This document shows, one piece after another, positions 3,046 to 61,360 of a stretch of 64,000 nucleotides of DNA (the stretch's first letter is position 1; each line of letters opens with the position of its first letter). Position numbers and translations under genes: made by a program. The notes under the pieces were generated by a model. That model saw nothing but the letters and a program-made list of their open reading frames with translations. It made no database searches and was not told the origin of the DNA. This stretch comes from Eledone cirrhosa (taxonomy: Eukaryota): positions 56,730,001-56,794,000 of the forward strand of contig OZ024748.1 in assembly GCA_964016885.1 (NCBI GenBank), given 5' to 3'.

Positions 3046-3395
3046 ATAACTCTCATTGATTAAGATCTCCCTTCAGTGTGGACATGCGATTCTACATCTT
3101 GGATTAAAACCTGTATTAGCGTTATTACAGTTTATTTATAGTTCATAATGAATCCCTTAGTATGACCGTCACGACGACTGAAAATAGTGCCGACTAATAT
3201 ATAAAGCTAAGAAACATGTCTTTGTTCATACGTATATGTCTGTGTTATATATGAGTGGTTGTACAGGGCTGCTGTGATAGAAATATATGGGCATCTTTCA
3301 TCTAGAAAATCCTTAAACCGAGCGCAGACACTACTATATATATATATATATATATATATATATATATATATATACATATATATATATATATATAT

Positions 3396-3456
3396 ATATA
3401 TAAGATCAAAAGATGGTTAAAAGAGTTCCATGTAACCATCTTTTGATCTTATATAT
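3396..3456. repeat. Perfect hairpin at the edge of a (TA)n tract
   Basis: aagatcaaaagatggtta (3402-3419) pairs with taaccatcttttgatctt (3433-3450); 13-nt loop. Confidence 0.9.
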
Positions 3457-3754
3457 TATTTATACTCCAGTCCTACAAACTGTAGAGTGCTACTTATCCG
3501 ATATCTGCATTGCTTTATTGTACTACAATAAAACTCACCTCCTACACATATATATAAATATATATATATAATAAAAGTATGTATTCCTACATGTAAATAA
3601 TACACGTATGGGTACAAGTATTTTCCAACCGTATGCCAGTGTGGTTCAATGGCAAGTTAATAAATTAACAAGCCAGAACATAAAATCAAGGTCAAGCAAA
3701 TAGTGAAAAAGTTTTTAAATAAATTTCAAAAAATTCACTGTACTTACTATATGT

Positions 3755-3836
3755 GCCTTTACCGCGGTTTCCGATCCCAAAATAAATAGATAATCCAAGC
3801 GAATTTCTATTGAGAATGAGATCATCGTCAGAAGGC
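3755..3836 (-). ncRNA. Type I hammerhead ribozyme motif with extended stem II
   Basis: Minus strand: GCCUU-CUGACGA-UGAUCUCA...UGGGAUCG-GAAAC-CGCG-GUA-AAGGC. Stem I is 5 bp, stem III is the palindrome ACCGCGGU and the cleavage triplet is GUA. Confidence 0.8.
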
Positions 3837-4071
3837 TTTTCTCACTCGGAGTTCAAATCACAATCTTTCGCCACACAAATAAATAAATAAATATTTATAT
3901 ATATATATATATATATATATATATATATATATATATATATACGTACATACGTATGTATGTTTGCATGTAGAAATATTTGAGGGTGGTCACGTTGCCAATA
4001 AGAAGAAACACCCGCACTATGTAATTTTCACTTTAATTTTATCTACATTTTTCCTAATTCATTCATTTCTC

Positions 4072-4108
4072 AAAGGTCTTTCGTTGCGCATTCTGTGAAC
4101 TCATCAAT
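4072..4108 (-). ncRNA. Decayed hammerhead motif related to 5108-5150
   Basis: Minus strand: UUGAUGA-GUUCACAGAAUGCGCAAC-GAAAGACCUUUG, compared with CUGACGAUGUUGCAGAUGUGCAAC-GAAAGAACUUUG. Confidence 0.45.
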
Positions 4109-55028: not shown

Positions 55029-56124
55029 ACCAATAAATGTAATGAAGGAGTAACCAATCGTCCTTGTTATCCTTTCAATATATTACATTCTGTATAGCTC
55101 TACAACTCAACACAGAAGTGAACCTAAACATCGAGTGCTCTCCCGGGTGAACCTGCAGTAACTCCAAGTTACACCCCCTGGATATATATATATATATATA
55201 TATATATATATATATATATATATATATATATATGAGAGAGAGATAACGAGCGTAATAGAGAGAATGAGATGAATTAAAAAGTGAAACGAGTAAGATATCC
55301 AAACAGAGAGTGATCGAAAGTCAGATCCATAGAAAAAGACATGTGTGTGTGTGTGAGAGAGAGAGAGAGAGAGTGAGAGAGAGAGGAAAAAATATAATGA
55401 AAAGTGCAAGAAACACAAAGAAGAGAGAAATATGGAGAGAGAGAGAGGGAGAGAGAGAGAGAGGGTGAGAAAGAGAGAGAAGGACAGAGAGATTAAGTGA
55501 AAGAGAGAAAAGAGACAGACAGCTTGACAGGCAGACAGGCTGACACCTAGAATGCGGACAATGGACAGAGAATGTTAAATCTTTAAATGATGATAGGAAA
55601 AAGAGAATGATGGAAAAACAAAAGTAAATTTCAAAAAAAAAAAGGAGAATGGAGCCACACAGAGAACGAAGGTGCGAGGATATACCGTATATATATATAT
55701 ATATATGAGAAGAAAGAAGAATACTGCGTGGTTGCACATAGGTTACATATGATAAAAATAGTCCTTCGTCAGTGATTTTCCAACCATCATTGGTATTTCA
55801 TCGCATTAAAAATCAGATACCTCAGGTTGGTGCGAGCAATAACTAAATAAAGTTATTGGGACCAGTAATTCGCGTATAGCGAGGGAGACAAGTAAACAAC
55901 ATAGAAGGATAAAAGCAAACCAAATATAGGAAAATAAACAAGCAACATGGTTGCCCTGTCAGCTTAAGCTGGGTAGATTTCATGAGCAAGAGAGGTACAG
56001 ACCGTGCGATATGCGTGAGATGTAAGCATGAAGAGACCCACTACCAGCCAAACGGGAAGAAGTGAGAAGGGGAAAAACAGAGAGTGAGTGGGTGGAAGTG
56101 TAAGGAAGAGGTCAGACGAGAGAT

Positions 56125-59100
56125 TTATATATATATATATATTTATATATATATATTTATATATATATATATATATATATTTATATATATATATTTATTT
56201 ATATATATTTATTTATATATGTTTATATATATATATTTATATATATATTTATTATATATATATATATTTAAATAAATATATTTATATATATATATTTAAA
56301 TATATATATTATATATATATTTATATATATATTTATATATATATATATATATATATATAAATATATATATTTATATATATATTTTTATATATATATATTT
56401 ATATATACATATTTATATGTATATATTTATTTAAATATTTATTTTATATATATTTATTTAAATATTTATTTATATATATTTATATATATATATATATATA
56501 TATATATATATATATATTTATATATATATTTATATATATATATATTTATTTATATATATATATTTATATATATATATATTTATATATAAATATATATTTA
56601 TATATATATTTATATATATATATTTATATATAAATATATATTTATATATATATATATATTTATATATATATATTTATATATATTTATATATATATATTTA
56701 TATATATATATATTTATATATATATATATTTATATATATATATATTTATATATATATATATTTATATATATATATATTTATATATATATATTTATATATA
56801 TATTTATATATATATATATTTATATATATATATATTTATATATATATATTATTTATATATATATATTTATATATAATATATTTATATAAAAATATATATT
56901 TATATAAATATATATTTATATAAATATATATTTATATATATATATATTTATATATATATATTTATATATATATTTATATATATATATTTATATATTTATA
57001 TTTATATATATATATTTATATATAAATATATTTATATATAAATATATATATATATATATTTATATATATATATTTATATATTTATATATTTATAATTATA
57101 TATATATATTTATATATAAATATATATTTATATATAAATATATATATATATATATATTTATATATATTTATATATATTTATATATATATATATATATATA
57201 TATATTTATATATATATATATATATATATATATATATTTATATATATATATATATATATATATTTATATATATATTTATATATATATATATATATATTTA
57301 TATATATTTATATATATATATATATTTATATATATATATATATATTTATATATATTTATATATATTTATATATATATATATATATTTATATATATTTATA
57401 TATATTTATATATATATATATATTTATATATATATATATATATTTATATATATATATATATTTATATATATATATATATTTATATATATATATATATATT
57501 TATATATATTTATATATATTTATATATATATATATTTCATATATATATATTTATATATATTTATATATATATATATTTATATATATATTTATATATATAT
57601 TTATATATATATATTTTTATATATATATATATTTATATATATATATTTATATATATATATATTTATATATATATATTTATATATATATATATTTATATAT
57701 ATATATATTTATATATAAATATATATATATATATATATATATTTATATATATTTATATATATATATATATATATATTTATATATATATATATATATATAT
57801 ATATATTTATATATATATATATATATATATATATTTATATATATATTTATATATATATATATATATATTTATATATATTTATATATATATATATATTTAT
57901 ATATATATATATTTATATATATATATATATATATTTATATATATATATATATATTTATATATATATATATATATTTATATATATATATATATTTATATAT
58001 ATTTATATATATTTATATATATATATATATTTATATATATATATATATATTTATATATATATATATATATTTATATATATATATATATTTATATATATAT
58101 TTATATATATATATATTTATATATAAATATATATATATATATATATATATATTTATATATATTTATATATATTTATATATATATATATATATATATTTAT
58201 ATATATATATATATATATATATATATTTATATATATATTTATATATATATATATTTATATATATATTTATATATATATATATATATATATTTATATATAT
58301 TTATATATATATATATATTTATATATATATATTTATATATATTTATATATATTTATATATATATATATATATTTATATATATATATATATATTTATATAT
58401 ATATATATATTTATATATATATATATATATATATATATATATATTTATATATATATATATATTTATATATATATATATTTATATATATATATATATATAT
58501 TTATATATATATATATATATTTATATATATATATATTTATATATATATATATATATATATATATTTATATATATATATATATATATATATATATTTATAT
58601 ATATTTATATATATATATTTATATATATATATATATATATATATATATTTATTTATATATATATATATATATATATATTTTTATATATATATATATATAT
58701 ATATTTATATATATTTATATATATATATATTTATAATATATTTATATATATATATATTTATATATATTTATATATATTTATATATATATATATTTATATA
58801 TATTTATATATATATATATTTATATATATTTATATATATATATATATATATATATATATATTTATATATATTTATATATATATATTTAAATATATATATA
58901 TATATATATATATTTATATATATTTATATATATATGTTTATATATATTTATATATATATATATTTATATATATTTATATATATATATATTTATATATATT
59001 TTTATATATATTTATATATATATATATTTATATATATTTATATATATATATATATATTTATATATATTTATATATATATATATATATATATATATATATA

Positions 59101-60815
59101 TTTATATATATATATATTTATATATATATATATTTATATATATATATTTATATATATATATTTATATATATATATATTTATATATATATATATTTATATA
59201 TATATATTTATATATATATATTTATATATATATATATTTATATATATATATATTTATATATATATATTTATATATATATATTTATATATATATATTTATA
59301 TATATATATTTATATATATATTTTATATATATATTTATATATATATATTTTTATATATATATATATTTATATATATATATTTATATATATATATATTTAT
59401 ATATATATATTTATATATATATATATTTATATATATATATATTTATATATATATATATTATATATATATTTATATATATATATATTTATATATATATATT
59501 TATATATATATATTTATATATATATATATTTATATATATATATATTTATATATATATATATTTATATATATATATTTATATATATATATATTTATATATA
59601 TATATTTATATATATATATATTTATATATATATATATTTATATATATATATATATTTATATATATATATATATTTATATATATATATATATTTATATATA
59701 TATATATATATTTATATATATTTATATATATATATATATTTATATATATATATATATTTATATATATATATATATTTATATATATATATATTTATATATA
59801 TATATATATTTATATATATATATATATATTTATATATATATATATTTATATATATATTTATATATATATATATATATATTTATATATATATATATTTATA
59901 TATATATTTATATATATATATATATTTATATATATATTTATATATATATATATATTTATATATATATATATTATATATATATTTATATATATATATATAT
60001 ATATATATATATTTATATATATATATATATTTATATTTATATATATATTTATATTTATATATATATTTATATTTATATATATATATATATTTATATATAT
60101 ATTTATATTTATATATATATATATATTTATATATATATTTATATTTATATATATATTTATATTTATATATATATTTATATTTATATATATATTTATATAT
60201 ATATATATATTTATATTTATATATATTTATATATATATATATATTTATATTTATATATATTTATATTTATATATATATATATATTTATATTTATATATAT
60301 TTATATTTATATATATTTATATTTATATATATATATATTTATATATATATATATTTATATTTATATATATATTTATATATATATATATATATTTATATAT
60401 ATATTTATATATATATATATATATATATATATATTTATATATATATATATATTTATATATATATATATTTATATATATATATATTTATATATATATATAT
60501 TTATATATATATATATATATTTATATACATATATTTATATATATTTATATACATATATTTATATATATATATATATTTATATACATATATTTATATATAT
60601 TTATATACATATATTTATATATATATATATATTTATATACATATATTTATATATATTTATATACATATATTTATATATATATATATATTTATATACATAT
60701 ATTTATATATATTTATATACATATATTTATATATATATATATATTTATATACATATATTTATATATATTTATATACATATATTTATATATATTTATACAT
60801 TTATATATATATAAT
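56125..60815. repeat. About 4.7-kb (TA)n tract with TTTA interruptions
   Basis: Read directly; almost free of G and C. Confidence 0.95.
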
Positions 60816-61321
60816 TTACATATATACACACACAGAGAGGGAGACATAAATTTATACAAAAAACGAAATCTCTATACACACACATTCATATACGGTAACA
60901 ACCCCCAGCCCATCAAAAGTGTATACGGAAGAATTCAGAATTCAGGACATGTAGGTAAAAATAGTGGAATAAATTCTGTGTGTGAGACGAATATAGAGGC
61001 AAAAATTGTGAGTTAAGTCTGCAGCCATATTTGAAGAATGGAGGCAAGAACACAGAAGTGTCCTTTTATTCTATTTCTAGTTGTTTTTCTTTATCCTTGT
61101 TTAAATGAATTTCTGTTCATGATTATGTAGCTATTTTAGAAAATAGATGCACTCAACTGAGAATATATATGCATACTCATATACTCATACACTCACTCAT
61201 ACACACACACACTCATACACCCACATGCTCCTATACACATTCACATACACATTTACACTTACACACACATACATACACAAATACACACACACATATATGT
61301 ATTGTGATTCAGTTGATATAT

Positions 61322-61360
61322 GGCTTACTGAGGAAGATACCACTATCAGCATTCTAAGCT
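61322..61360 (+). ncRNA. Decayed minimal hammerhead motif (GAA missing)
   Basis: GGCUUA-CUGAGGA-A-GAUA-CCAC-UAUC-[GAA]AGCAUUC-UAAGCU. Confidence 0.5.

Follow-up and report, generated by a model that had tools for sequence, protein, structure and literature searches.

Short islands in (TA)n microsatellites of Eledone cirrhosa as probable 3' ends of hammerhead-bearing Penelope-like elements

We analysed a stretch of 64,000 nucleotides from the octopus Eledone cirrhosa (GenBank assembly GCA_964016885.1, 3.0 Gb; contig OZ024748.1, positions 56,730,001 to 56,794,000), hereafter the window, of which about one quarter is microsatellite and 47.9 of 64 kb are left after masking. Many short islands between its TA tracts had been described in a first-pass annotation as cassettes with type I hammerhead ribozymes (HHRs) from mostly unrelated families. 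The families are indeed mostly unrelated, as no pair of the ten window cassettes, here called families A to J (Table 1), clustered at E ≤ 1e-8 over at least 45 nt; by eye, the cassettes at 5108 and 4072 have one motif in common. All ten are dispersed repeats with copies on several chromosomes, in which the 3' end is fixed and the position where the 5' end breaks off is variable. The islands are very probably the 3' ends of about ten families of Penelope-like elements (PLEs) with type I HHRs that are predicted to self-cleave, and were likely inserted into pre-existing (TA)n by target-primed reverse transcription.

Table 1. Hammerhead-bearing families of the window (RT, reverse transcriptase; UTR, untranslated region; ORF, open reading frame)
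Feature	Position	Strand	Description
Family A	3565..3878	-	5'-truncated copy of ORF-less ~481-bp tandem unit
Family A HHR	3755-3836 (core 3831-3825)	-	intact type I, palindromic stem III CCGCGG
Family I	3975..4170	-	old PLE-type 3' end, ~74-80% identity to other copies
Family I HHR relic	~4068-4111	-	core TTGATGA; CTGANGA in 0/14 other copies
Family G	4726..4898	-	PLE-type 3' end; tail and inverted copies at other loci; core damaged (4859)
Family H main arm	4913..6330	-	5'-truncated PLE: RT C-terminus, CX4CxxC linker, GIY-YIG-type endonuclease, 3' UTR
Family H HHR	5110-5147	-	2-bp stem I
Family H inverted 5' piece	6331..6526	+	145-bp 3'-end copy and ~50-nt tail (6476-6526)
Family F	7130..7257	+	old low-copy HHR relic; GAAA and stem III kept, true core lost
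Family B	53556..53850	+	5'-truncated copy of ORF-less ~692-bp tandem unit
Family B HHR	53557-53681	+	intact; 9-bp stem II closes 77-nt insert
Family C	53868..54008	+	3' end of young PLE; longer copies have RT and endonuclease
Family C HHR	53884-53953	+	minimal; 2-bp stem I, 30-nt insert, then further possible pairing; window copy decayed
Family D	54282..54407	+	3' end of Hydra-type PLE
Family D HHR	54299-54357	+	intact; short inverted tail piece just before (54282-54298)
Family E	54450..55181	+	Hydra-type PLE 3' UTR and end; 5' boundary approximate
Family E HHR fold	54942-55028	+	subfamily-wide non-canonical core CCGUCGA
Family J	61296..61570	-	old PLE-type 3' end with inverted 5' piece
Family J HHR relic	61422-61493	-	core CGGATGA at 61489

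HHRs were searched for with a descriptor of the type I order (stem I, CUGANGA, stem II, GAAA, stem III, UH, stem I), for which three stringency settings were run in total; the strict descriptor demanded a stem I of at least 3 bp. It matched the window at 3831(-), 53560(+) and 54303(+), compared with a mean of 0.025 matches in shuffled windows that preserved the microsatellites, and none of 40 shuffles reached three. At the strictest of the three settings there was one window match, which was equalled by 1/40 shuffles. In an Rfam scan of the window with 587 matches, dominated by microsatellite-driven miRNAs, the best 150 include no hammerhead, and a repeat search over the whole window yielded TA arrays only.

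Six of the cores had been called intact, and three of them, at 3755(-), 53557(+) and 54298(+), pass the strict descriptor; the other three do not. At 5108(-), the core (5145) and stems II and III are present and stem I is merely 2 bp, as it is in other copies of family H, where 17/29 pass with a stem I of at least 2 bp and 0/29 with at least 3 bp. The core at 53890(+), reported at 53887(+), also has a 2-bp stem I throughout family C (19/19 pass with at least 2 bp, 0 with at least 3 bp), and its window copy has decayed further. The CTGAAGA at 7195, claimed as a core at 7191(+), aligns to non-core sequence: the real CTGA(T/C)GA lies about 15 nt upstream in 3/3 relatives, which were all that could be found for family F (71-85% identity). 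Next to the window copy of this family in the 3' direction is (CA)n, not (TA)n directly. Among the proposed relics, those at 4072 and 4774 are both decayed members of HHR families; intact look-alikes of the former (family I) are present in the random genome sample described below, and other copies of the latter (family G) keep CTGANGA in 17/19 cases and pass the strict descriptor in 0/19. The altered core at 54942 is not individual decay, since it is common to the subfamily. At 61322(+), GAAA and the stem are out of register, and the HHR of this family (J) is on the minus strand; CTGATGA is found in 9/14 other family J loci, none of which passes the strict descriptor.

Hammerhead frequency was far above that in shuffled sequence. 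An unbiased sample of 80 evenly spaced 10-kb stretches of the genome (800 kb, of which 745 kb is non-microsatellite) contained 45 HHRs, against 0-1 in each of six shuffles. They occupy 25/80 stretches, giving a density of 56 per Mb (35-80 by bootstrap over stretches), or an estimated one intact HHR in 18,000 bases, which extrapolates to about 170,000 intact HHRs in the assembly (about 105,000-240,000). The window has the genome-average density, with 3 matches per 47.9 kb compared with 45 per 745 kb of non-microsatellite sequence. The 45 HHRs form ten clusters, 24 of them group with family D, and all 45 have a palindromic stem III. For covariation we took 16 of the 24 matches in the D cluster, excluding inverted twins and near-duplicates, and added the window copy: in these 17 HHRs, 93.5% of cells were paired and 11/19 pairs had changes on both sides, whereas slid controls were 32-56% paired. 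The cassettes are multi-copy, and the stems of the D-group HHRs covary. Minimum-free-energy folds of single copies recovered stems I and/or II in some copies and the full three-way fold in none. A few motifs do look like products of chance in AT-rich DNA: the supposed core at 7195 and the supposed relic at 61322(+) (61328) are fortuitous, and one of the 45 random-sample HHRs (L291) looks chance-like. As an account of the whole set, chance is refuted by the excess over shuffles, by covariation and by family-wide conservation, and we give it practically no credence.

The proposed bias of the cassettes to (TA)n was seen both at the 3' ends of the families and beside the random-sample HHRs. Nine of the family searches filled their best 40 scored places, and candidate counts are not copy numbers; among the loci compared, (TA)3 or longer directly follows the 3' end in 17/24 for family A, 22/24 for B, 19/19 for C, 10/19 for D, 16/19 for E and 12/19 for G, and several loci without it instead enter a family-specific tail or the next unit. 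Of the random-sample HHRs, 78% have (TA)6 no more than 200 nt downstream and 18% no more than 200 nt upstream, compared with 9% on either side at 5,000 random positions. This strong 3' bias and the AT-rich 3' ends of several families would also be expected if (TA)n were not targeted at all, and the tracts instead grew later from AT-rich 3' ends or insertions survived better there. We consider this improbable, because many truncated copies have TA at the variable 5' break too, unrelated families are stacked within the same TA tracts, the 3' end of family E is C-rich and yet adjoins TA in most of its loci, and a preference for (TA)n has been published for Hydra and Naiad PLEs (PMC8557442).

The copies have the marks described for PLEs, which are truncation at the 5' end, inverted 5' copies or partial tandems, and in some copies a 3' tail (PMC8557442). 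These marks are clear in families A, D, G and H, whose 3' ends also fall into two clusters separated by about 50-110 nt; the tail of about 50 nt in the window copy of family H is at the 3' end in other H copies. Inverted copies adjoin many insertions, and short loci of family C have an extra copy in 0/19 cases. Family C copies are 97-99% identical (best 39 copies).

Extension of the cassettes in the 5' direction, a check proposed in the first-pass annotation, led to PLE coding sequence. In 20 stretches with longer copies, four families (C, D, E and H) are preceded on the sense strand by coding pieces of their own, so that the label of Penelope termini stands for at least these four. Family H has a 787-aa frame with RT and endonuclease (locus L179), in family C both domains are split over several pieces, some 1.5 kb before the HHR (L165, L166), family E has the RT C-terminus and endonuclease upstream (L169), and in family D a piece of the endonuclease lies upstream at a distance of about 2.5 kb (L168). 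The linker motif is CxCX5C (Hydra type) in D and E and CX4CxxC (Neptune/Nematis type) in C and H, the latter fitting Neptune and Nematis alike without separating the two. Published descriptions define the Hydra clade by CxCX5C and place CX2-5CxxC between RT and endonuclease in Neptune and Nematis (PMC8557442). By eye, family E (L169) also has CxxC and CxH around a conserved E and N, a region that the D piece ends short of; the N-termini of D and E, where RWK and DKT motifs mark the Hydra clade, were not recovered. In Pfam, RVT_1 matched H and C, both below the cut-off; there was no match for D and E or for the 265-aa frame of the window, and no GIY-YIG family match was returned. The best named match of an element protein is a predicted RT-domain protein of Octopus vulgaris (67% identity). 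A near-complete Hydra-type ORF in two frames was seen on the minus strand of another locus (L173; G000:C5:77690700-77699000), where it lies some 3.6-6.1 kb in from the lower end and has the motifs RWR, DKT, CxCX5C, and CxxC and CxH; it is separate from a neighbouring H copy and unlinked to D or E.

The cassettes had been proposed to be mobilised by GIY-YIG elements like the one at 4913-6475. The window copy of family H (4913-6526) cannot mobilise others, because it is 5'-truncated, its RT core is missing and its endonuclease is interrupted by a stop at 5541, and four families have coding pieces of their own. Instead, as published work suggests, the GIY-YIG endonuclease may nick AT-rich DNA in (TA)n, and reverse transcription may start just 3' of the HHR, where two alternative internal start sites would account for the tail. 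Early drop-off of the RT would then produce stubs of 100-350 bp, and these contain the HHR because it sits 50-250 nt from the 3' end. The proteins of families C, D, E and H would copy their own families, and A and B may be mobilised in trans by some PLE. Cleavage would occur as dimers through the palindromic stem III, following a published dimer model (PMC4209133). A palindromic stem III without a loop would need a partner HHR on the same RNA. Tandem units have one and solo stubs do not, so that the stubs, and with them most copies in the window, are likely inert.

Families A and B fit the earlier suggestion of non-autonomous retro-RNAs, because both close into ORF-less tandem units. Same-strand repeats occur at offsets of 464-485 bp in 11/24 family A loci (unit about 481 bp; L036 and L054 are one insertion, and one 148-bp offset was set aside) and at offsets of 668-709 bp in 7/24 family B loci (unit about 692 bp). 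The longest stop-free frame in these units is 56-73 aa, their GC content is 32-37% and each contains a type I HHR. They resemble non-LTR (long terminal repeat) retrozymes in being ORF-less, low in GC and head-to-tail with a type I HHR, and differ from them in forming no long arrays but partial tandems or dimers, with PLE tails and inversions in A. Since their units of 481 and about 692 bp also exceed the range of about 150-450 bp given for non-LTR retrozymes (PMC7229834), we describe A and B as retrozyme-like rather than as members of that class. The random sample also holds a 310-bp head-to-tail array (L222:8416-9808) of at least four units and one inverted unit, with an intact compact hammerhead in each, and this array is a classical non-LTR retrozyme.

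In a rival reading, every cassette would be a short, independent and non-autonomous retro-RNA (retrozyme) that depends in trans on a single GIY-YIG family such as H. The ORF-less tandem units of A and B, the array at L222 and family G, for which no ORF has been found so far, are in line with it. It is refuted for families C, D, E and H, whose copies run on into coding pieces that are particular to each family and represent two motif types or more, and whose 5' ends vary continuously. We therefore regard this reading as very improbable. Family G may be either a non-coding element of about 410 nt or a UTR broken at an internal repeat, as four copies start at one point behind a microsatellite.

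Several observations weigh against reading the islands as PLE 3' ends, or limit the evidence for it. Among the random-sample HHRs, a PLE coding piece lies within 4 kb upstream in only 4/45, which is expected because the insertions are truncated stubs; the rest would be tied to PLEs by family or architecture only. The 45 HHRs are not independent, as they include inverted pairs and one tandem array, their palindromic stem III is partly built into the descriptor, which demands a paired first position, and the D-group structure was drawn from the same sequences and is thereby favoured over the slid controls. RT was not recovered in the longer copies of D, no ORF was found for F, G, I and J, and the clades suggested for C, D, E and H come from motifs, not a tree. 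Family B has a single 3' end and an inverted copy in 1/24 loci. Finally, no autonomous partner of A, B or G was found among 294 loci: A and B gave ORF-less diverged relatives only (72-83% identity, in B with compensatory stem changes), and the PLE coding pieces in the loci searched were on the opposite strand or had TA tracts between.

Family E differs from the other families in its core. None of the 19 other top copies has CTGANGA; genome-wide, a 21-mer that contains CCGTCGA has 112 exact matches, against 0 when CTGANGA takes its place; and the two core-spanning E copies in the unbiased sample read CCGTCGA and CCGCCGA. The idea that E has no canonical relative was ruled out by a sister sequence, L097, which is 88% identical to E, keeps CTGACGA and was missed by the 21-mer because its flank differs. 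From this comparison we infer that the CCGUCGA core is derived and was fixed before the E subfamily expanded. In vitro, U4C lowers HHR activity and change of A6 leads to low activity, with A6U itself absent from the text of that study (PMC3088659). E RNA is therefore predicted to show little or no cleavage, in agreement with the insertion in vitro of hammerhead mutants of the Anolis Poseidon PLE PAc (PMC11167929). Tentatively, and with slightly more doubt than confidence, we propose that the genome's roughly 170,000 intact PLE HHRs are among the largest sets reported and that E is a natural knockout: its core would have turned from CUGACGA into CCGUCGA (U4C and A6U), with all three stems kept, before the subfamily spread to its 112 or more places.

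Much of this picture is already known. That PLE repeats carry HHRs, that they prefer (TA)n and that there is a case in octopus has been published, and the window is in itself ordinary; what we add, the scale and the core of E, is modest. Craig et al. 2021 (PMC8557442 supplement) list Hydra-1_Obim of Octopus bimaculoides, a Hydra PLE that has an HHR and prefers (TA)n. Families D and E are like Hydra PLEs in their CxCX5C linker, a type I HHR near the 3' end, (TA)n and one common end site; they agree with Hydra insertion into (TA)n because their 3' ends adjoin it, as judged by adjacency rather than by empty sites. They differ in their long 3' UTRs, of about 2.5 kb in D and 1.8 kb in E, and in HHR sequences unlike the one listed for Hydra-1_Obim, and the non-canonical core of E contrasts with canonical HHRs that are called universal in the clade (PMC8557442). 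Families C and H differ from Neptune and Nematis in a stem I of merely 2 bp by the core, followed in C by a 30-nt insert. Minimal PLE hammerheads have been described as truncated single copies, with a 2-bp helix I in Drosophila virilis (Cervera and de la Pena 2014, PMC4209133). Ours are like them in type, in their short palindromic helix III, in belonging to several unrelated families and in being mostly truncated singles; they are unlike them in stem II inserts of up to 77-90 nt and in number, which is given there as about 4,000-9,000 for coelacanth and Xenopus, with a different descriptor. Our estimate is near the 120,000 given for axolotl, where the descriptor again differs.

PAc, in turn, has an AT-rich target and two internal RT start sites that give rise to a tail (Frangieh et al. 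2024, PMC11167929), and its HHR overlaps the ORF start and is described as dispensable for insertion in vitro. The Eledone families resemble it in AT-rich target, tail and repeat-borne HHR, features that are known here from sequence. The repeat annotation of O. vulgaris includes PLE families, and 'ribozyme' has 0 occurrences in its main text (PMC13282606). A search of the literature, which left subscription papers, Repbase and some supplements outside its scope, found by title no hammerhead census of an octopus genome, and neither HHRs on this scale nor a subfamily fixed for a non-canonical core such as CCGUCGA.

Other repeats lie in the same window. A second 3' fragment of family B without a hammerhead was seen by eye amid TA tracts at 24614-24748. 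A TA-flanked island at 3402-3548, with a short inverted 5' piece, is probably a PLE-type end with no hammerhead in the fragment; the same sequence adjoins TA at locus L148. At 3174-3225(+), a possible decayed minimal hammerhead (CTGAAAA, then GAAA CATG TC) was noted by eye and does not pass the descriptors. A further TA-abutting repeat family at 55700-55900(-), with inverted copies at other loci and four matches in the 800-kb sample, has CTGA(T/C)GA about 60-70 nt from the 3' end and GAAA about 25 nt upstream, without hammerhead stems. A type II hammerhead at 55772(-) was ruled out by eye, as the stems fail to close; the family recalls the 'HHR half core' of octopus Naiad elements, and two short motifs from it were unmatched in the supplement of PMC8557442. 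Young minisatellites with units of 37, 42, 73 and 60 bp (94-97% inter-unit match) occupy 17776-19850, 20379-21328 and 46746-47885, an interspersed repeat of about 360 bp has two near-identical copies at 8747-9105 and 9430-9790 with (ATGT)n between them, and a relic of a Mariner/Tc1-type DNA transposon with terminal inverted repeats and helix-turn-helix domains (Pfam HTH_32 3e-09, HTH_48) lies at 23250-24140.

PLE hammerheads are widespread and yet dispensable for insertion in vitro (PMC11167929), and for the question of their role Eledone cirrhosa offers matched natural material: family E against L097, which differ in the core, the young family C with its 2-bp stem I, and the ORF-less families A and B with PLE marks. 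A and B bear on the PLE origin that has already been proposed for retrozymes (Li et al. 2026, preprint 10.64898/2026.07.22.740005), and, judging by the count, numerous short islands in octopus microsatellites that pass for 'unique' may well be PLE stubs that lack annotation. If the proposed history of family E is true and its RNA is not cleaved, PLEs would be able to amplify in vivo without ribozyme cleavage; if its RNA does cleave, CCGUCGA would be a new active core variant.

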